Positions 3,021 to 54,856 of a DNA stretch of 64,000 nucleotides are shown here, piece after piece; the stretch's first letter is position 1; every line of letters begins with the position of its first letter. The notes beneath the pieces were generated by a model. It worked only from the letters and a program-made list of their open reading frames with translations, ran no database searches and was not told the origin of the DNA. Source of the DNA: Minisyncoccota bacterium (GTDB taxonomy: Bacteria; Patescibacteriota; Minisyncoccia; Phycocordibacterales; UBA9973); assembly GCA_041666045.1 (NCBI GenBank), contig JBAYHR010000001.1:119460-183459 (forward strand). Direction: 5' to 3'. A program made the translations under genes and the position numbers.

Positions 3021-3716
3021 TTAACCTTCGTTAAAAATTGCGCGAGCTTTTTTAAGATTATAACCAAATTCTTGAGCTGATTGAAATAATGATATTCCTA
3101 AACCCATATAAGCTTCTTTATTGGCTTTTTGTTGAATATTAAAACCCAATACACATGTTGCTTTAACATCAGCTCTTTGAAAAAGAGAGATACCTAAACC
3201 AAATATTGCATTTTTACTAGCTTCTTGGTAGGAGGAAAATCCTAAAACATTTATTGCATTTCTATCACAAGATTGAAATAATGAAATTCCAATAAAAATC
3301 AGTGCATCCTGTTTTGCTTGTTGATAAAAAGAAAATCCAAAAAAATTTACGGTATCTTCTTTTGCTTTCTGAATCAAAGAAAAATTAAAAAGATGTATTG
3401 CATCTTTACCTGCTTTTTGATAAAAAGAAAATCCTGCGATAGATACAGCAGTATTGCCTGCTTTTTGAAGTAATGATAAGTCTACTAGGCAAAATGCATT
3501 TCTACCAGCTTTTTGGAATATTGAAATAAGTGAATAAATACTTCCATCTTCATTTATTCCTCCAAATAAAGAGTAAATATTTTTCCCTATTTTCCAGGGG
3601 TATGAAGCAATAAAAATTAAAATAAGGTATTTAGCTTCTATTTCAAAAAAGAAATAAGCTATAGCAGTAATTAATACAGCTAAACAAAAGTTCAAAAGAT
3701 TTTGTGTCTTTTTCAT
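3021..3716 (-). CDS. membrane-anchored protein made of about 10 tandem 16-residue repeats (consensus roughly G-I-S-L-F-Q-K-A-x-x-N-A-x-x-x-L)
   Basis: A 231-aa ORF with a hydrophobic N-terminal segment followed by repeats such as SLISIFQKAGRNAFCL, SLLQKAGNTAVSIAGF, SFYQKAGKDAIHLFNF, SLIQKAKEDTVNFFGF. The DNA shows a 48-bp periodicity. No known family was recognised. Confidence 0.55.
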   Translation of the reverse strand: MKKTQNLLNFCLAVLITAIAYFFFEIEAKYLILIFIASYPWKIGKNIYSLFGGINEDGSIYSLISIFQKAGRNAFCLVDLSLLQKAGNTAVSIAGFSFYQKAGKDAIHLFNFSLIQKAKEDTVNFFGFSFYQQAKQDALIFIGISLFQSCDRNAINVLGFSSYQEASKNAIFGLGISLFQRADVKATCVLGFNIQQKANKEAYMGLGISLFQSAQEFGYNLKKARAIFNEG

Positions 3717-3796
3717 TATTTGGTTCCTCCTAATTTAGTTTATGACAAAGATTTATTTAAAAGCATTATATTGTATAATAATATTTTTGTCAACTG

Positions 3797-3867
3797 CTGG
3801 GAGACTAGGAATCGAACCTAGATTCACGGCTTCAAAGGCCGCTGTCCTACCGTTAGACGATCTCCCA
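3797..3867 (-). tRNA. tRNA-Gln (anticodon UUG)
   Basis: A manual cloverleaf gives acceptor TGGGAGA/TCTCCCA, anticodon loop CTTTGAA, T-loop TTCGATT and discriminator G. No CCA is encoded. Confidence 0.8.
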
Positions 3868-3900
3868 ATGTAAACAAATATAAGAATACCTTAAAAAGGT

Positions 3901-4941
3901 TTATTTTTCAACCGAAAGAATTTTTATAAGTGCAAGTTCTAAGGGAAGTTCTGGGATAAATGCATTCTCTATATTCTCATATGCTCCAAGCAAAATAGAT
4001 AATGCTGGAGAACGTAAGGTCCCCTCTTTGTCTTGTTTTACAAGCGCTTTCAAAAATTCTAAATCTTCTCCTGATAAATCCCCTGACATTTCGCTTTCAA
4101 GTTTTGGAGAATATTTTAGAATTATCGCCATACGGAATTTCTGAATTATAAGTTTCAAGAATAATTTCATATCTAGATTTTCACTTGAAGCTTTTCTTAC
4201 AGACAATATTCCATCTTCTAGATTCTTATTTGCAATAGAAGAAATAAAATCATTTACTAATGTTGTTTTTGGCGCACCAGTAATCTTTTCAATATCTTCT
4301 CTTTTAATTTTTTTAGTTTTAGCAAAATTTAAAACTTTTTGCAAAATACCTTGCGCATCACGGAATGATCCATCTCCAAGAATTGCTATGAGTTCAGCGG
4401 ATCCATTATCTAATTGGAATCCTTCTTTTTCTGCAATATCTAAAACTGTATTTTTTAAAATAATATCTGATGGTTTTTTAAATGTGAAAACTTGGCATCT
4501 AGAAATAATAGTATCTGGAACTTTATGAAGTTCTGTCGTAGCTAAAATAAATATCACATGTTTTGGTGGCTCTTCTAAAGTCTTAAGTAAAGCGCCCCAA
4601 GCATCTTTAGAAAGCATATGTACTTCGTCTATAATGTAAACTTTATATTTTGAATCAAAAGGTAAAACTCGCACTCCATCGCGAAGAGTTCTAATGTCGT
4701 CAATTCCTCTATTTGAAGCTGCATCTATTTCATATAAATCATTTACTGATACGCCTATTTGTTCAGCGAAAATACGCGCTACTGAAGTCTTTCCAGTACC
4801 ACGTGAACCTACGAATAAATACGCATGAGAGACTTTATTTGATAGAACTGAGCTTTCTAGCACTTTCACTATATGCTCTTGTCCTAACACTTCTTTGAAG
4901 CTTTTAGGTCTATATTTTCTATATAATGCTAAGTCGTGCAT
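3901..4941 (-). CDS. dnaX: DNA polymerase III subunit gamma/tau, short form
   Basis: Walker A VGSRGTGKTS and the clamp-loader domains I-III are present. At 346 aa the C-terminal tau domains are absent. Confidence 0.9.
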   Translation of the reverse strand: MHDLALYRKYRPKSFKEVLGQEHIVKVLESSVLSNKVSHAYLFVGSRGTGKTSVARIFAEQIGVSVNDLYEIDAASNRGIDDIRTLRDGVRVLPFDSKYKVYIIDEVHMLSKDAWGALLKTLEEPPKHVIFILATTELHKVPDTIISRCQVFTFKKPSDIILKNTVLDIAEKEGFQLDNGSAELIAILGDGSFRDAQGILQKVLNFAKTKKIKREDIEKITGAPKTTLVNDFISSIANKNLEDGILSVRKASSENLDMKLFLKLIIQKFRMAIILKYSPKLESEMSGDLSGEDLEFLKALVKQDKEGTLRSPALSILLGAYENIENAFIPELPLELALIKILSVEK

Positions 4942-42518: not shown

Positions 42519-43109
42519 TTAATAAAAAAATAAGTATCCTGCGTTCCTATCACCACTGTATGGATTGTCATACAAAGCAGTTGTAATAGAATTATTATAG
42601 CTTGGATCCCACTCAACAATCTTATCACCTTTTTCTAAAGGATCACTCATAATAAAAACGCGATCCATATTATGAATATTTAAAAATTCTTTAGTAATAA
42701 AATGAGATATTAAATAAGCAAGGTGAAACGTGATTTCTGCCGGAACAAGATAAAAATCATCAGGAAGACCATCTCTAATTAAAACCTTAGGTGAACGACA
42801 ATGTGTTGTTCTACCTTTGATTATTGCCACATGATGACTGATTTGTTCTAAGGAATCATTAAAGTTTTTATTAAAGAATCCGGATTGAATTAATTTCTTA
42901 ATTATATCATTAAGTTTAATACCCCTTAATTCTAATTCTGTAACCATAGAAGTGATAGGTTTATTAAAATCACATACATCTTCAAAAAAATCAAAACGAT
43001 TACCTAATGTTTCTGAGTCAGGCAACACATCTACAATAACAATATCATTGGCTTTTATTTTAAAATAGCCAACTTCTATTTCTATTGATTTTATTAAATT
43101 ATTTTTCAT
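42519..43109 (-). CDS. hypothetical protein
   Basis: A 196-aa ORF. Confidence 0.45.
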   Translation of the reverse strand: MKNNLIKSIEIEVGYFKIKANDIVIVDVLPDSETLGNRFDFFEDVCDFNKPITSMVTELELRGIKLNDIIKKLIQSGFFNKNFNDSLEQISHHVAIIKGRTTHCRSPKVLIRDGLPDDFYLVPAEITFHLAYLISHFITKEFLNIHNMDRVFIMSDPLEKGDKIVEWDPSYNNSITTALYDNPYSGDRNAGYLFFY

Positions 43110-43239: not shown

Positions 43240-44724
43240 TTACAAAAGTTCCTTCAATAATTTAATAACCATTTGAGGATTGGCACTACCATTACTTTCT
43301 TTTATAACCTTACCAACTAAAGACATAATAGCGTTTTCTTTACCACTCTTGTAAGTAGCCACAACTTCAGGATTTTCCCCTATTATTTTCTCTACGATTC
43401 CTTTTATAGCTCCTTCATCATTTTTCTGAATCAAATCTTTCTCTATAGCAATCTTTTTTGGAGATTTATCATTTTCTGCAATCATTGCAAAAATATCTTT
43501 AGTAGCACGAGATGAAGTTTCTCCTCCAGTAAACATATAAATAAGTTCTGAAAAATTTTCAGCACTTGGTATTTTTATATTGGGATTGCTTCTTTTAAGA
43601 CCAATAAAATCTGAAGTAATGTAATTTGAAGCTGTTTTTGTTTTATTTTTATCACCTAAAATTTTTCCAACTTTCTCAAACCAAAAACCAAGTTCTTTAT
43701 CATTTATGTAAACTTCAATATCTTCATCTTTTATTCCAAAATCATTTCTATATCTTGCACGCATTTGTTCTGGTAATTCTGGCAATTCATTTTTCATTTT
43801 TTCTAAATCCCAGCCTGAGGCTGGTCCGCCTTTGGCGGAAAATCTACTATGTAAAAACATTTTTGGAAGATCTGGTTCTGGAAAATATCTATAATCATGA
43901 CTTGATTCTTTTTTTCTTTGAGAAAAAGTTTTTTGTTTAGATTCATCCCATCCGCGAGTCTCCTGTACTATTTCATCTCCCTTTCCACTCTCCATTAGTT
44001 CTACCATTCTATCTAATTCAAATTTAATAGCTTTTTCAACACTCTTAAAAGAATTCAAATTTTTAACTTCAACTTTTGTCCCTAATTTATTTTTATCCTC
44101 GGAAACTGAAATGTTCGCTTCTACACGCATTTCACCTTTTTCCATATTTGCATCAGATACTCCTAAATACCAAAGTATAAGCTGAAGTTCTTTTGCGAAA
44201 GCCGAAGCACTTTTTGCCACTACTTCATCTGACGCATCAAAAGTATTTGGTTCTGTCACAAGCTCCATCAAAGGCACTCCTGCGCGATTAAAATCTATTA
44301 AAGAAAAACCTGCACTGAGCGTAGTCGAAGTGTCACCATCCCTATGTTTGTTGTTTGCTGTGTCTTCTTCTAAATGCACACGAGTTACATCAAAATCTGC
44401 CAAATGTCCTCCTGAAACTATTGGATATTTATATTGAGTAATCTGATAGCCTTTTGGAATATCTGGATAAAAATAATTCTTTCTATCAAATTCTGTAAAA
44501 TCTGCGATATTTCCTCCGATAGCCAAACCAACTTTTATCACGTTTTCTATAGCTTTCTTGTTGGCAACTGGTAAAGTTCCCGGATGTGCCATACAAACAG
44601 GGCAAATATTAACATTCGGTTTTTCCTCATCAGGATTGTTTTTGCAACCACAAAACATTTTTGTCTGTGTTTTTAATTCCGCGTGTATTTCAAGTCCTAT
44701 TGTCGGGTAATATTTTTTATTCAT
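43240..44724 (-). CDS. gatB: Asp-tRNA(Asn)/Glu-tRNA(Gln) amidotransferase subunit B
   Basis: N-terminus YYPTIGLEIHAELKTQTKMFCGC and a YqeY-like C-terminal domain. Confidence 0.95.
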   Translation of the reverse strand: MNKKYYPTIGLEIHAELKTQTKMFCGCKNNPDEEKPNVNICPVCMAHPGTLPVANKKAIENVIKVGLAIGGNIADFTEFDRKNYFYPDIPKGYQITQYKYPIVSGGHLADFDVTRVHLEEDTANNKHRDGDTSTTLSAGFSLIDFNRAGVPLMELVTEPNTFDASDEVVAKSASAFAKELQLILWYLGVSDANMEKGEMRVEANISVSEDKNKLGTKVEVKNLNSFKSVEKAIKFELDRMVELMESGKGDEIVQETRGWDESKQKTFSQRKKESSHDYRYFPEPDLPKMFLHSRFSAKGGPASGWDLEKMKNELPELPEQMRARYRNDFGIKDEDIEVYINDKELGFWFEKVGKILGDKNKTKTASNYITSDFIGLKRSNPNIKIPSAENFSELIYMFTGGETSSRATKDIFAMIAENDKSPKKIAIEKDLIQKNDEGAIKGIVEKIIGENPEVVATYKSGKENAIMSLVGKVIKESNGSANPQMVIKLLKELL

Positions 44725-44761
44725 CTGTTATATATTAACACAAATCTAGTTATTTTAAAAA

Positions 44762-44798
44762 ATAAAAAAGCCTAACTTAAAGTCAGGCTTTTTTTTAA
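44762..44798. terminator. hairpin with flanking A-run and T8 run in the gatB upstream region
   Basis: A stem AAGCCT/AGGCTT followed by TTTTTTTT. No protein gene lies upstream on the plus strand. Confidence 0.35.
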
Positions 44799-45034
44799 AA
44801 AAATAGGCTTACCAGATGTAATATCTCTACAGCTTCGGTTGACTCTTTGCGCTGAGTCGATTAGTCAAAAAAGTTATGGTCCAAATTTTGACATTACGCA
44901 CCTTAGCTAATAGTCTGGGTGTTACCCTCTCATCAAGCATTAACGTATCGCTTGGTTTTCAGCCTAAAAGAACTAATTCCCATATGATTAAAGAATATTG
45001 CAAAAAATAAATAAAGTCAAGCAAATACCTACAG

Positions 45035-45115
45035 TAATTTATCTTGACATTTATCGTTTTAAAATGTATCCTGAGAGTAAATCTGCTCTTAAAAATAACC
45101 TTTAAAATATCAAAT
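45035..45115 (+). promoter_or_regulatory. promoter-leader module, family 2 copy 1
   Basis: TAATTTATCTTGACATTT...GAGAGTAAATCTGCTCTTAAAAATAACC...ATCAAAT ends at the ATG at 45116. It is about 90% identical to 46493-46574 and contains a -35 TTGACA. Confidence 0.5.
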
Positions 45116-45733
45116 ATGAAAACACTAATTCTTCATTTCCCGGAAATCTCCACCATTATTTTACTAATATTAGTAATTTTTTTATGGAGAGAAATTATTG
45201 TAAAAAGAAAAATAATAAAAGTACTAAAAATTTGTTCTTTTAGAAGTCATAATGTAAATGAATTTTTTAATAAACTTAAAAAACTTAATGTTAAATCATT
45301 CCATTCCATAGAAAATGAGGTAATGCATTCCATTGAATTAATCAGCTATTCTGATCTTTGTGTATTGATTTATGGTGGTGGCTATTCAGAAAGTGGTTTC
45401 TCAAATGAATTGCCTCCAAAACTTGGAAAAGTGTTTGCTAAAATAATTAAGCGAAAGTTGAGCTTAATGGAAAATAAGTTGTTTTCTCAAATTTTTATCG
45501 AAAGTTTAGAAAGACAATTATCTTGTGATAATAACCCATACGCAGATACTTTAATTAAAGAAGCAATGCGAAGTAAAAAAGTATCAGATGAAAGGTTCCC
45601 TGAAGAATTTATTTCAACAATGGAGAATTCTATAAACAAGGAACAAGACGAAAATAAAAAAATTGTCCTAAATGGAGAATTAATAAAAATTCGTAAAAAT
45701 CTAAAAATTTTTAAAGGGATGGAAGTAGAATAA
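45116..45733 (+). CDS. hypothetical membrane-anchored protein
   Basis: The start was set at the ATG at 45116. The tracked TTG start at 45044 is the -35 box of the leader. Confidence 0.45.
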   Translation: MKTLILHFPEISTIILLILVIFLWREIIVKRKIIKVLKICSFRSHNVNEFFNKLKKLNVKSFHSIENEVMHSIELISYSDLCVLIYGGGYSESGFSNELPPKLGKVFAKIIKRKLSLMENKLFSQIFIESLERQLSCDNNPYADTLIKEAMRSKKVSDERFPEEFISTMENSINKEQDENKKIVLNGELIKIRKNLKIFKGMEVE

Positions 45734-45734
45734 A

Positions 45735-45772
45735 CAAAAAAATGCCTATTATTTAAAATAGGCATTTTTTAT
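45735..45772. terminator. rho-independent terminator (9-bp stem ATGCCTATT/AATAGGCAT followed by T6)
   Basis: Directly after the stop of gene 45116-45733. Confidence 0.6.
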
Positions 45773-46453
45773 TTCTTTTTTAAATACCTCAGAGGCCTTG
45801 CCTCTGGGATTATAAGTAATCCAATCTAAAATTTCTCTTTCAAATTCATTCTTGTTGGGGAAATAGTCTGGAAACTTTTCAATAGAAAGTATTTTTGATT
45901 GCAATCTATGTTCCCCTAAATATTCAGGGTAACTTGAGTATTTATATTCTGCGAGATACTTTTTTGTTTCTTTGACATTTTTAATACCAATTTCTTTCCA
46001 ATCTTTGTCTATCAATTTTACAGGATTAAGATGCATGTAAGAAAAAACATATTTTAAATATCTATCATTATATAAATGTTCGGCTTTAAATTTTCCTTCA
46101 AACAAGCTTCCTGTTCTTTTATGTATCGTATTAAAATACATCACATATGCAGTAGAAAATTTTTGCATAAACTTTGATATTCCATCTTCCTCTTTTTCTT
46201 TAATCAAAAGATGGAAATGATTCGGCATTAAACAAAATGTGCCAATATAAACAAATGATTCTTCTCGATCAAAATCATATTCATCTTCTACGATATCTCT
46301 AATTACAAAATTCCTTTTAGAATTGCATAAATATAATAATTTAAGAAAATGAAAATAATCTCCTTTGTTTAAAAAAATTTTTTGTTTACTATTGCCACGG
46401 TTATATATGTGGTAATACTCATCTACAGCAAATGATATTTTTCTTATACTCAT
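45749..46453 (-). CDS. tnpA: IS200-like Y1 transposase (HUH motif HFHLL)
   Basis: YHIYNRGN...CLMPNHFHLLI...Y..MHLNPVK. The last 12 or so codons run past the left-end hairpin into the neighbouring terminator, so the native C-terminus probably lies inside the element. Confidence 0.8.
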   Translation of the reverse strand: MSIRKISFAVDEYYHIYNRGNSKQKIFLNKGDYFHFLKLLYLCNSKRNFVIRDIVEDEYDFDREESFVYIGTFCLMPNHFHLLIKEKEEDGISKFMQKFSTAYVMYFNTIHKRTGSLFEGKFKAEHLYNDRYLKYVFSYMHLNPVKLIDKDWKEIGIKNVKETKKYLAEYKYSSYPEYLGEHRLQSKILSIEKFPDYFPNKNEFEREILDWITYNPRGKASEVFKKEIKNAYFK

Positions 46454-46489
46454 ACATAGTAGTATACCACAGAGGCAAGGCCTATGGGG
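45787..46489 (-). mobile_element. IS200/IS605-family-like insertion carrying only a Y1 (HUH) transposase, bounded by inverted hairpin ends
   Basis: The left end CCTCAGAGGCCTTGCCTCTGGG (45787-45808) and the right end CCACAGAGGCAAGGCCTATGGGG (46467-46489) are mutually inverted palindromic hairpins. The element sits exactly between the terminator of gene 45116-45733 and leader copy 2. Confidence 0.55.
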
Positions 46490-46492
46490 TTA

Positions 46493-46574
46493 TAATTTAT
46501 CTTGACATTTGTTATTTTAAAATGTATCTTGAGAGTAAATCTGCTCTTAAAAAATAACCTAAAAATATCAAATT
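46493..46574 (+). promoter_or_regulatory. promoter-leader module, family 2 copy 2
   Basis: It begins 4 bp after the IS right end and ends at the ATG at 46575. Confidence 0.5.
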
Positions 46575-46946
46575 ATGGTTTATATAATTTCTATTGAAAA
46601 TGTTATTTCAAATTATTTTGAAAAGAATCAAGATAAAAAAACAGTTTCTCTGTCAGTTTTAAATGATTACAAAAAAAGTATTGAAGTTCTTTTTAGAAAA
46701 AAAGGGCAAAATGTAATCATAGATTTTACAAACGCTTCATTGATTAACACGGTAGTTAATCATCCAAATCTATTTGATTTAAAAGATCAAGAAATAATTT
46801 TTAAACAGTATAGAAAAGATAAACTGGTTGAAGAAGTTAAAAACTATTTCAATTCTACATTGCCGTTTCATATTAAAGAAGATTATCTAAAAATTTTCAA
46901 AAAAGTTAATGATAAATTAACAAAAATTAAACCAATCCAAAAATGA
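46575..46946 (+). CDS. hypothetical protein
   Basis: A 123-aa ORF, unrelated in sequence to gene 45116-45733 although it shares the same leader. Confidence 0.45.
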   Translation: MVYIISIENVISNYFEKNQDKKTVSLSVLNDYKKSIEVLFRKKGQNVIIDFTNASLINTVVNHPNLFDLKDQEIIFKQYRKDKLVEEVKNYFNSTLPFHIKEDYLKIFKKVNDKLTKIKPIQK

Positions 46947-47004
46947 CTGCAAAGCAGTTGCTTTGCATAAGATCAAGGATCTTATAAAAAGTCGCTATTT
47001 ATTA

Positions 47005-47045
47005 ATATAAACCAGTAGCACGTAATGTGTTACTGGTTTTTTATT
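47005..47045. terminator. bidirectional terminator (AACCAGTA/TACTGGTT followed by a T-run) shared with the obg 3' end
   Basis: An A-rich left flank and a T-rich right flank. Confidence 0.55.
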
Positions 47046-48051
47046 TCTTCTTTAAAATTTTAGCTAATTCATCACCGAATTTCTTTACAGACTTGTCATC
47101 ATAAAGTGAAATTACAAAAACTTTTTCGCCAAGCTTTTCAAATTCTTTTTTCTTTTTGTCTATAATCTTGTCATCTTCCACTACATCAGTTTTTGTTAAA
47201 ACAATTATTTCTTCTTTGGAAGACAAACCTTCTTTACCTAAACCACTTTTTTTATCATAAGCTTCCAATTCTTTTCGAATTTCTTTATAAGTTTTCATCA
47301 TCCCAGTAGTCCCTTTTGATAAATTTTCAAATGAAACAAGGTGCGCTATCATCTTTGTTCTTTTGATATGTTTTAAAAATTTTACACCCAAACCTTTTCC
47401 TTCTGATGCGCCCTCAATAACTCCAGGAATATCTGCAATAATGTATCCATAAAAATCTCCTAAGTTTGGATCTAAAGTTGTGAAAGCATAATCCGCCACT
47501 TTTGCATTTGCATTAGTTAAAGAATTTAAAAGTGAAGACTTTCCAGCGTTAGGAAGACCAACAAGCCCAATATCCGCAAAAAGTTCCAATTCAATTTGAA
47601 AATTTCCATTTTCACCTTCCTGTCCTGTGCGAGATTCTTGGGGTGTCGTATTAGTAGAACTTTTAAAATGTTCATTCCCAAATCCTCCATAGCCACCCTT
47701 AAGCAACATTACTTTCTGTCCTTCTTCTGTAAGTTGCCAAGTTTCATCTGTTTCTAAATTAGTAATAACAGAACCAATTGGCAATTCAAGGAAAAAATCA
47801 TCACCATTTTTACCATGTAAACTTTTATTTCCACCATCTTCCCCGCGATTAGCAAAAAATTCTTTTTTTGCTTTATATTTAGAAAGAGCATGCACATCTC
47901 GAATAGCAAGAGCGAAAAAATCCCCACCACGTCCGCCGTCGCCTCCTGCAGGCCCACCTTTAGGCACAAACTTCTCCTGACGCCAACGAACAACACCATC
48001 TCCACCGCGTCCTGCTTCTGCATGTATTTTTATTTCATCTATGAATGCCAT
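47041..48051 (-). CDS. obg: GTPase Obg
   Basis: An Obg N-terminal glycine-rich fold (GGDGG repeats) plus a GTPase domain. Confidence 0.95.
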   Translation of the reverse strand: MAFIDEIKIHAEAGRGGDGVVRWRQEKFVPKGGPAGGDGGRGGDFFALAIRDVHALSKYKAKKEFFANRGEDGGNKSLHGKNGDDFFLELPIGSVITNLETDETWQLTEEGQKVMLLKGGYGGFGNEHFKSSTNTTPQESRTGQEGENGNFQIELELFADIGLVGLPNAGKSSLLNSLTNANAKVADYAFTTLDPNLGDFYGYIIADIPGVIEGASEGKGLGVKFLKHIKRTKMIAHLVSFENLSKGTTGMMKTYKEIRKELEAYDKKSGLGKEGLSSKEEIIVLTKTDVVEDDKIIDKKKKEFEKLGEKVFVISLYDDKSVKKFGDELAKILKKK

Positions 48052-54373: not shown

Positions 54374-54856
54374 TTATTTTTTAAAGAAGCAAATAATGCA
54401 ATACCCATGAGGATATAAATTATCCCTAAATTTGGATAAGCAAAATTCAAAATTGCCATAAAAATGCGCAGCCATAAATGGAACCATAATATTGCCATCA
54501 GGAGCTTTCCATAATGCTTTCTTTTTATCAAAAGAAAATATCCATTTATCTTTAGGAAATTTTTCTTTTTCATATCCATAAACCAAACTCAACCCTTGCG
54601 CTCCAACAAATAATGCATTTCTCCTTTTCATAAAAGACTTTAATTTTTTGATATCACAAATCCATTCTCTGTTTTTAACTTCATTTAGATTATCATTGTT
54701 ATGTTTATTTGATTTACTATTATCTCTATAAAACGTTTTAAACAAACCTTTCGTGGCCTCAATATCATAAGCCTTATATCCTATTTTATTTAATTGATGA
54801 CATATAGTGGTTTTTCCTGAACCAGCTATTCCAGTTATAAAAATTGATTTTTTCAT
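54374..54856 (-). CDS. P-loop (Walker A GIAGSGKT) protein whose C-terminal domain is shared with secreted ORF 752-1345
   Basis: The N-terminus KKSIFITGIAGSGKTTI is kinase- or AAA-like. The C-terminal roughly 75 aa are homologous to the C-terminus of ORF 752-1345. Confidence 0.5.
   Translation of the reverse strand: MKKSIFITGIAGSGKTTICHQLNKIGYKAYDIEATKGLFKTFYRDNSKSNKHNNDNLNEVKNREWICDIKKLKSFMKRRNALFVGAQGLSLVYGYEKEKFPKDKWIFSFDKKKALWKAPDGNIMVPFMAAHFYGNFEFCLSKFRDNLYPHGYCIICFFKK

Follow-up and report, generated by a model that had tools for sequence, protein, structure and literature searches.

Why should two unrelated genes of a small bacterial genome be preceded by almost the same promoter, and what has the transposase-like gene between them to do with it? 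The question is raised by a locus in a 64 kb stretch of DNA (the window, to which coordinates refer unless a relative is named) from a 265,619-bp contig of a metagenome-assembled genome (MAG) of Candidatus Paceibacterota, a tiny groundwater-type bacterium of the candidate phyla radiation (CPR). Here two copies of a promoter-leader segment, which we call the module, end at the start codons of two orphan genes, A and B, and a gene for a Y1/HUH tyrosine-transposase-like protein is located between them. A preliminary description took this gene for an IS200-like insertion that had split the repeat, with the repeat boundary or a motif such as TTAT as a possible target, and considered that the modules might be mobile promoter cassettes. 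We find instead that the Y1 gene resembles the REP-associated tyrosine transposases (RAYTs; REP, repetitive extragenic palindrome) in architecture and predicted fold, that its adjacency to a promoter is shared with a related lineage, and that the locus carries marks of a local rearrangement. Our preferred explanation, held with a little better than even confidence, is that the pair of modules goes back to a local segmental duplication, or to the joining of two alleles of the interval between obg and gatB, followed by loss of a Y1 unit and replacement of open reading frames (ORFs).

Two copies of a promoter-leader module

The module is a direct repeat of 81 nt (45035-45115 and 46493-46573; family D3 of the repeat finder) with 89% ungapped identity. 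With gaps allowed the copies are 91.5% identical across 82 columns (blastn E = 4.5e-24), and a 23-nt core, GAGAGTAAATCTGCTCTTAAAAA, has exactly two occurrences in the window, compared to 0.00 expected from 100 shuffles. Both copies have the layout of a sigma-70-type promoter, i.e. TTGACA, 17 nt and TATCCT (copy 1) or TATCTT (copy 2), and a promoter scan of positions 44700-47100 returned precisely these as the two best sigma-70-like sites (10/12). On the plus strand, copy 1 (45035-45115) has its -35 box at 45044-45049 and its -10 box at 45067-45072, followed by a stem-loop (45072-45091); from there an A/U-rich leader extends to the ATG at 45116. The corresponding elements of copy 2 (46493-46574, plus strand) lie at 46502-46507, 46525-46530 and 46529-46550, and an equally A/U-rich stretch leads to the ATG at 46575. 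The predicted stem-loop, UGAGAGUA-aauc-UGCUCUUA, comprises 8-9 bp and sits right behind the -10 box in both copies; its folding energy is -7.8 kcal/mol in copy 1 (z = -3.0) and about -8 kcal/mol in copy 2 (z about -3). Transcription is predicted to start 6-8 nt past the -10 box, near 45079 and 46537, which would place the start inside the 5' arm of the stem; for the Y1 gene the predicted start lies at or beside its ATG. Similarity between the copies ends at the two ATGs and the products of the genes that follow are unrelated, so that the preliminary description was right to see two roughly 90% identical promoter-leaders, each with a TTGACA, before unrelated genes. Judged by its sequence, the module is an ordinary sigma-70-type promoter with a 5' leader of about 45 nt in two paralogous copies, and the best reading is that each copy today would simply drive transcription of its own gene.

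Searches of the source genome for the module, and for the hairpins described below, covered the window and a further 7.7 kb of contig sequence (about 72 kb together), so that two copies are a lower bound. No third copy was found in these sequences or in about 500 kb of related loci, and none of the 80 more distant Y1 loci carries the module. Scanning for the exact core gave no match in a metagenome contig collection and one chance match, inside a Bacteroidales coding sequence, in a genome contig collection; neither scan returned the source genome's own two copies. Two module patterns gave no match in a viral contig collection, and Rfam yielded none over the modules, either at the gathering threshold or at E <= 1. 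Nothing shows that the module moves, and the proposal of mobile promoter cassettes is not borne out. As far as the data reach, the module is unique to this locus and other insertion sites bear no relation to it, the two observations that the preliminary description had itself named as speaking against its view.

Gene A (45116-45733, plus strand) codes for a 205-aa orphan protein with a hydrophobic N-terminus and gene B (46575-46946, plus strand) for one of 123 aa. An exhaustive phmmer search with gene A against 1.84 billion representatives returned the protein itself and one weak match to a repeat protein only, while gene B matched itself alone among 5.8 billion proteins. Neither has a usable match in Pfam, NCBIfam, PADLOC or PHROGs, gene B giving one marginal match to a PHROG family of unknown function. 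Paralogy of the two genes was considered and rejected, as no protein or DNA similarity extends past the module; nor is either gene similar to the other orphans treated below, i.e. those behind a second repeat family of the window and those of the same interval in relatives. Their G+C contents are 26% (A) and 22% (B) versus 33-35% for core genes. Gene A is followed by a bidirectional intrinsic terminator (45737-45770), and a second intrinsic terminator (47009-47039), unrelated to it in sequence, lies behind gene B and obg. A leader of about 45 nt makes genes A and B unusual in the window. The absence of a Shine-Dalgarno sequence from the modules was rejected as a special trait, since the motif is present at just 5 of 63 window genes. 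Separately, in many genes of the window a TATAAT-like box precedes the ATG by 7-10 nt, gatB and the Y1 gene (TGgTATACT, 7 nt) among them, which suggests that leaderless mRNAs may be widespread here.

A RAYT-like Y1/HUH protein

The gene between the module copies (45749-46453, minus strand) encodes a protein of 234 aa. It matches the Pfam family Y1_Tnp with 31.4 bits (cut-off 23) and the NCBIfam family REP_Tyr_transpos with 45.8 bits, under the cut-off of 80. The catalytic motifs appear intact: NHFH (H79, H81) and Y139-x-H-L-N-P are invariant in 20 homologues. More than 7,700 relatives of about 216-224 aa were found, mostly on one or two contigs per 90% cluster, and all source names among the top matches listed are Patescibacteria. 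Records of the exact protein come from one locus only, in three samples, and the source genome has one copy in the sequence covered.

A sequence profile of the Y1 family gave no match in the Protein Data Bank (PDB), and a fold search was needed. Using an AlphaFold2 (AF2) model with a pLDDT (predicted local distance difference test) of 80.5, the best match is 4er8, the E. coli TnpA-REP bound to a REP hairpin (E = 3.4e-5; template modelling score TM = 0.60, target-normalised), followed by the transposases of ISDra2, IS608 and IS200. Hallmarks of RAYTs are a conserved N-terminal Thr and the motif NP(L/V)(R/K)xG beside the Tyr (Nunvar et al. 2010, PMC2817692). In our alignment the Thr is not invariant, the region reading Y-N-R-G-N-S-K-Q, and the Gly is absent from the family, which has N-P-(I/V)-K-L-I. 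Because the protein departs from these sequence motifs and no dispersed REP population is visible in about 72 kb, we describe the gene as RAYT-like in its architecture and modelled fold and do not file it as a RAYT member.

The homologues usually end at a stop codon inside the 3' hairpin of the unit. In the window copy this site has changed from CATAGG to CAGAGG, and loss of the stop accounts for about 16 extra C-terminal residues of the window protein.

The Y1 gene lies between covarying hairpins

The 5' hairpin of the Y1 unit (46467-46489; CCCCATAGGCcttGCCTCTGTGG on the Y1 strand) is placed between the two divergent promoters, and the 3' hairpin (45787-45808; CCCAGAGGCaagGCCTCTGAGG on the Y1 strand) has its loop inverted relative to it. 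Delimited more narrowly, the two hairpins span 46470-46486 and 45790-45806. Module copy 2 begins 3-4 nt outside the 5' hairpin and points away from the Y1 gene, which upholds the tie between the left edge of the module and the end of the Y1 element that had been noticed before. Of the earlier placement of the element at 45787-46489, 4 bp from copy 2, the small gap stands, while comparison with the related locus L009 (loci are numbered with the prefix L) moves the left end to 45785.

Hairpins were counted in 82 homologous Y1 loci. Of the 82 5' ends, 73 have an invariant 11-nt core, AGG(C/T)CTTGCCT, and 69 of the 82 3' ends have its complement or the same core. The loop is CTT in 69 of 74 5' hairpins and AAG, i.e. 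in inverted orientation, in 50 of 72 3' hairpins. The outer stems vary from genome to genome, yet agree at both ends of each Y1 gene. In an alignment of 47 homologous hairpins six outer stem pairs covary, with 91.9% of cells paired and 121 double changes versus 37.5 in shuffles, the observed value being reached in 0 of 500 shuffles; as a control, slid alignments score 0.07-0.15 versus 0.64. Where the variable core position is T (or, in inverted 3' hairpins, where its mirror position is A), full pairing is possible only on the strand with the CTT loop, via a G-T wobble. This bias applies to 41 of 69 5' hairpins and, among the inverted 3' hairpins, to 33 of 50, and hints at a single-strand function on opposite strands at the two unit ends.

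The surroundings of the hairpins were compared in 68 loci. The 12 nt outside either hairpin contain no conserved base and no TTAT-type target, which speaks against the repeat boundary or TTAT having been an insertion target. A partial repeat of one hairpin arm is found just outside a hairpin in at least 15 of these loci. The source genome has only the two hairpins beside Y1, and the 82 loci (430 kb) contain 19 additional hairpin cores that share the genome-specific stem, most of them at a distance of 350-850 bp from Y1. In L069, L070, L083, L060, L016, L089, L090, L025 and others, a single neighbouring gene is bracketed in this way; by eye, the bracketed genes include CYTH-like, GrpB-like, deformylase-like, Ham1-like and RNase HII-like ones. 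That a third hairpin encloses a conserved partner gene was considered and rejected, the bracketed neighbours in 12 loci being mutually unrelated. In most cases the duplication is limited to the hairpin (45 nt or less) and leaves out its flanks. In L025, a terminator and a double hairpin upstream of Y1 form a block of 134 nt that is also present before an unrelated gene.

A hypervariable slot between obg and gatB

Modules and Y1 unit occupy the interval between the minus-strand genes obg and gatB, which measures 2,316 bp in the window. Across 3.6 kb the window agrees at 100% with two short contigs from other sequencing runs, and the arrangement is therefore stable. In relatives, the same interval comprises 11 bp in L010 (Obg 91% identical at the amino acid level), 23 bp in L095-L097 (86%), 346 bp in L093 (89%), 376 bp in L009 (92%), where the opposite strand encodes a 72-aa ORF, 1,186 bp in L094 (85%), 2,441 bp in L011 (75%) and 2,578 bp in L012 (75%). 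It is a hypervariable slot of 11 bp to 2.6 kb that is filled with orphan genes.

The two closest Y1 homologues (83% and 79% identical), those of L011 and L012, lie in this same slot on the obg strand and have the same hairpins, so that the location is common to three lineages. In the L012 sequence, positions 3392-4188 align with 46572-45785 of the window, an alignment that includes the 3' end of Y1, the 5' hairpin and the whole of module copy 2 and halts at the start codon of an unrelated gene (107 aa) in divergent orientation. The L012 promoter shares TTGACATTT, TTTTAAAA and the -10 box with module copy 2 (z = 5.3; 0/500 shuffles). Since copy 2 sits at the same place as this promoter, the adjacency of promoter and hairpin is inherited and not due to a recent insertion: against a fresh insertion beside copy 2, as had been proposed, L012 already has a homologous divergent promoter next to its 5' hairpin. 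Nor does an IS200-like insertion that split the repeat agree with a RAYT-like gene whose protein is on record at one locus, which shares its slot with L011 and L012 and whose homologues mostly have the hairpins (82 loci). Two neighbouring orphan genes of L012 are themselves preceded by related promoter-leaders, albeit weakly (z = 2.9; 5/500 shuffles). A family-wide link between Y1 and obg-gatB was rejected, as obg, gatB and MYG1 are found within 4 kb in 0 of 80 more distant loci.

Behind obg and on the same strand, L011 (2492-2737), L012 (2040-2345) and L094 (6016-6252) have a gene for a small membrane protein of 78-101 aa, which the window lacks; the stop codon of the L011 gene falls inside the Y1 5' hairpin. 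The interval between gatB and fba is a second variable slot, with a 196-aa orphan in the window (42519-43109, minus strand) and ORFs of 145 aa in L009, 193 aa in L094 and 131 aa in L095. The 196-aa protein of the window and the 145-aa protein of L009 show no similarity.

Marks of a probable rearrangement

Read from obg to gatB, the order is obg, the terminator behind gene B, gene B, module copy 2, the 5' hairpin, Y1, the 3' hairpin, a second 16-nt obg end, the terminator behind gene A, gene A, module copy 1, a putative hairpin-end remnant, a segment resembling the L093 spacer, and gatB. This is what tandem units running from "obg end" to "Y1 outer end", minus one Y1, would give.

The second copy of the last 16 nt of obg (45769-45784; TTATTTCTTTTTTAAA, the reverse complement of the stop and last codons, located by alignment) adjoins the outer end of the Y1 unit at 45785. 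Its sequence equals that of the obg end in L009; the real obg end of the window (47041-47056) differs from it at 1 of 16 positions. The similarity to L009 extends further: 59 nt at 45727-45784 match L009 1346-1404 at 96.6%, compared to 83-87% for core genes, and the same terminator follows gene A here and a different ORF there. The presumed tandem junction shares AAA. At the other end, the 12 nt joined to module copy 1 (45023-45034; AAATACCTACAG) resemble the outer end of the Y1 unit, AAATACCT-CAG at 45782-45792, with 11/12 matches and one indel. Only 0.8% of random 12-mers of the window score as well against the two ends, and the resemblance is suggestive of a remnant of a lost Y1 unit, no more; the partial arm repeats in at least 15 of 68 loci show that half-hairpin remnants beside such units are common.

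To the left of the putative remnant, a non-coding segment on the minus strand (44764-44992) is 90% identical across 298 nt to the whole obg-gatB spacer of L093. It has a G+C content of 37% versus 30%, a promoter-like site (45020-44992; TTGACT, 17 nt, TATTCT), an intrinsic terminator (44794-44764) and a fold z-score of -2.65, with no match in Rfam, and is a candidate small RNA.

A second promoter-leader family in the window

Another family of the same design had been pointed out in the preliminary description, and we confirm it. This family 1 is a two-copy promoter-leader repeat (660-756 and 2241-2337; 92% identity) that ends at the ATG of unrelated orphan genes. It consists of TTGACT, 17 nt and TAAATT; a palindrome, TTGACTTGTCAA, covers the -35 box, and a GAGC/GCTC stem-loop differs between the copies in the loop only. 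The copies are separated by an HD-domain gene that is encoded on the opposite strand, and no Y1 hairpin is adjacent. One family-1 gene (752-1345) has a diverged paralogue at 54374-54856 (minus strand), the stretches 1086-1248 and 54636-54474 being 72% identical at the DNA level. Elsewhere in the window, a 65-nt unit is present five times (3082-3434; spacing 48 or 96 nt; 65-71% identity to the reference copy) within a minus-strand ORF (3021-3716) that has no Pfam match.

Origin of the module pair

From these observations we infer an order of events that includes a Y1 deletion and ORF replacement. In this lineage, a promoter firing away from Y1 would have stood just outside the 5' hairpin of the RAYT-like unit. 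A segment that began 16 nt within the 3' end of obg, comprised the terminator, the orphan gene and the module and closed with the far end of the Y1 unit would then have been placed in tandem, either by duplication in situ or by additive recombination of two slot alleles, and the 16-nt obg fragment adjoining the 3' hairpin would be the junction. Later the Y1 unit may have been deleted from the gatB-proximal copy, leaving about 12 nt of its outer end beside module copy 1. Finally, the ORF and terminator behind one or both promoters would have been replaced, such that the copies now drive unrelated orphans. This last step has to be added because the genes and terminators behind the copies are unrelated, for which plain duplication is insufficient. 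A promoter-leader that is kept while the ORF is unrelated is also seen in family 1 and, weakly, in L012, and the terminator of gene A is common to L009 with a different ORF. The 134-nt block of L025 that recurs before an unrelated gene is a comparable case and counts in favour of this explanation.

Several points weigh against this explanation. The closest relatives by Obg (86-92%) lack the Y1 unit, and the apparently resident unit may be a recently imported slot allele; as the unit is present in L011 and L012 and not in these nearest relatives, and the Y1 DNA identity to L011 (84%) exceeds that of obg (76%), the slot content may have been imported horizontally. ORF replacement would have to be precise to the start codon, by a mechanism that is not demonstrated. 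The remnant is just 12 nt long (p about 0.008) and unanchored. Family 1 has the same promoter-to-ATG design with no Y1 hairpin beside it, which suggests a more general process. Finally, the part of the source genome that was searched amounts to about 72 kb.

The main rival starts from the promoter early stem-loop (PeSL) cassettes of phages: promoter, stem-loop and leader would be a portable recombination substrate through which orphan ORFs are shuffled among variable slots, by homologous exchange between copies within one genome or between strains. It overlaps with local duplication and ORF replacement and is compatible with them, and we regard it as unlikely. Two independent module families in 64 kb that share one design and lose their similarity exactly at the ATG of unrelated orphans would fit such shuffling, and so would the hypervariability of the obg-gatB slot and the terminator flank of gene A, 96.6% identical to L009 next to a different ORF where core genes reach 83-87%. 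The neighbouring L012 orphans with related promoter-leaders (z = 2.9; 5/500 shuffles) point the same way, and the known cassettes likewise join a sigma-70 promoter and a stem-loop before ORFans in hyperplastic regions (PMC2839356). Yet each family has two copies, compared to about 50 in a phage genome, searches of other loci and of the collections did not find the module, and no circles or alternative arrangements are in evidence, the arrangement being identical in two independent samples. Moreover, the stem-loop is weak and no U-tract follows it, so that a role as terminator is unlikely. We think it quite unlikely that the domesticated Y1/HUH gene and its hairpin pair mark a gene-capture hot spot in Patescibacteria, with orphans that collect beside the hairpins and are expressed from promoter-leader cassettes exchanged by recombination, possibly with help from HUH nicking at the hairpins; this would be the cellular counterpart to PeSL shuffling.

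A more direct part for the Y1 enzyme is conceivable in two ways. It may have copied a hairpin together with the module, as a REP- or REPIN-like unit carrying a promoter, to a site one gene away. The seemingly intact catalytic motifs, the 19 extra hairpin cores found mostly 350-850 bp, i.e. about one gene, from Y1 in 82 loci, the L025 hairpin block duplicated with its flanks and the possible hairpin-end remnant at module copy 1 are consistent with this; on the other hand, in most loci the hairpin is duplicated alone, the 16-nt obg-end duplication is unlike a product of Y1 peel-and-paste, family 1 has no hairpin, and the activity of the Y1 protein is putative, which makes co-mobilisation very unlikely in our view. 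The other way is the one originally proposed, in which an IS200-type element inserted into or near the boundary of a pre-existing tandem module repeat, either with the boundary as target or by chance. The outer ends of the Y1 unit do lie within 0-4 nt of the junctions with the obg fragment and the module, the unit is about 700 bp long as in IS200, the closest relatives by Obg lack it, and its higher DNA identity to L011 (84%, obg 76%) is compatible with horizontal arrival. Against this stand the single locus on record for the exact protein, the best fold match to a RAYT and not to IS200 or IS608, the mostly inverted hairpins and the lack of a conserved target motif outside 68 units. The same hairpin-promoter adjacency in L012 and the hairpin-end remnant at copy 1 would, in addition, have to be coincidences, and for this reason such an insertion is the least likely of the readings and highly improbable.

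If local duplication followed by Y1 loss and ORF replacement is indeed the origin of the module pair, the finding itself is an ordinary one, a promoter duplicated by local rearrangement, yet it corrects a habit of annotation: the Y1 "transposase" described here, and thousands in Patescibacteria, would behave as a RAYT-like host gene with a covarying hairpin pair and not as an insertion sequence. The locus is also a clean example of orphan-gene turnover in streamlined CPR genomes, with unrelated ORFs placed between a conserved promoter-leader and a terminator in a slot between core genes. Should the modules instead prove to be exchanged cassettes, phage modular gene shuffling would extend to cellular genomes, and there would be a testable route by which new genes gain expression signals.

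Comparison with known systems

The direct repeats at the ends of a unit of about 1.3-1.5 kb, and the short duplicated end of a neighbouring gene at a junction with AAA microhomology, are as in segmental (tandem) duplication or additive, homology-facilitated illegitimate recombination. Unlike in a segmental duplication, the interiors of the two units, i.e. ORF and terminator, are unrelated, and the event was therefore not a simple duplication.

PeSL elements of T4-type phages consist of a sigma-70 promoter and a stem-loop, fill the space between the stop codon of one gene and the start codon of the next and mediate modular shuffling (Arbiol et al. 2010, PMC2839356; PMC4122927). The module resembles them as a repeated promoter and stem-loop that extends to the start codon, before orphans and in a variable region between core genes. 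In contrast to PeSL, it resides in a cellular genome, has two copies per family compared to about 50, lacks a Shine-Dalgarno sequence and has a weak stem-loop that is unlikely to be a terminator; neither mini-circles nor exchange events have been seen.

Elements of the IS200/IS605 type are present in multiple near-identical copies, insert 3' of a tetra- or pentanucleotide target and have both end hairpins on one strand. With these the Y1 unit shares the Pfam Y1_Tnp domain, a length of about 700 bp, subterminal hairpins and the absence of classical terminal inverted repeats. It differs in that it is not seen in multiple copies, its protein is about 70 aa longer than the IS200 TnpA, its hairpins are mostly inverted, no target tetranucleotide is conserved, and close relatives share the obg-gatB slot.

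With regard to RAYTs (PMC2817692; Bertels et al. 2017, PMC5581495), the Y1 unit differs in its host, Patescibacteria, in a protein of about 218 aa that scores 45.8 in NCBIfam against a cut-off of 80, and in the missing N-terminal Thr and Gly of NP(L/V)(R/K)xG. Its hairpins have the invariant 11-nt core AGG(C/T)CTTGCCT instead of a GT(A/G)G head, and no abundant dispersed REP population is visible, with two hairpins in about 72 kb. With respect to the RAYT traits of about one copy per genome and mostly vertical inheritance the picture is mixed, as L011 and L012 share the slot and the closest relatives by Obg lack the unit. Like RAYTs, it encodes a Y1/HUH protein with the HUH motif and a nucleophilic Tyr in the context Y-x-x-x-N-P, the exact protein is on record at one locus and most homologue clusters occur on one or two contigs. 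The gene lies between two palindromic hairpins, mostly inverted, whose stems covary with each other and differ between genomes; its stop codon is located in or beside the 3' hairpin, and the best match among solved folds is TnpA-REP (4er8).

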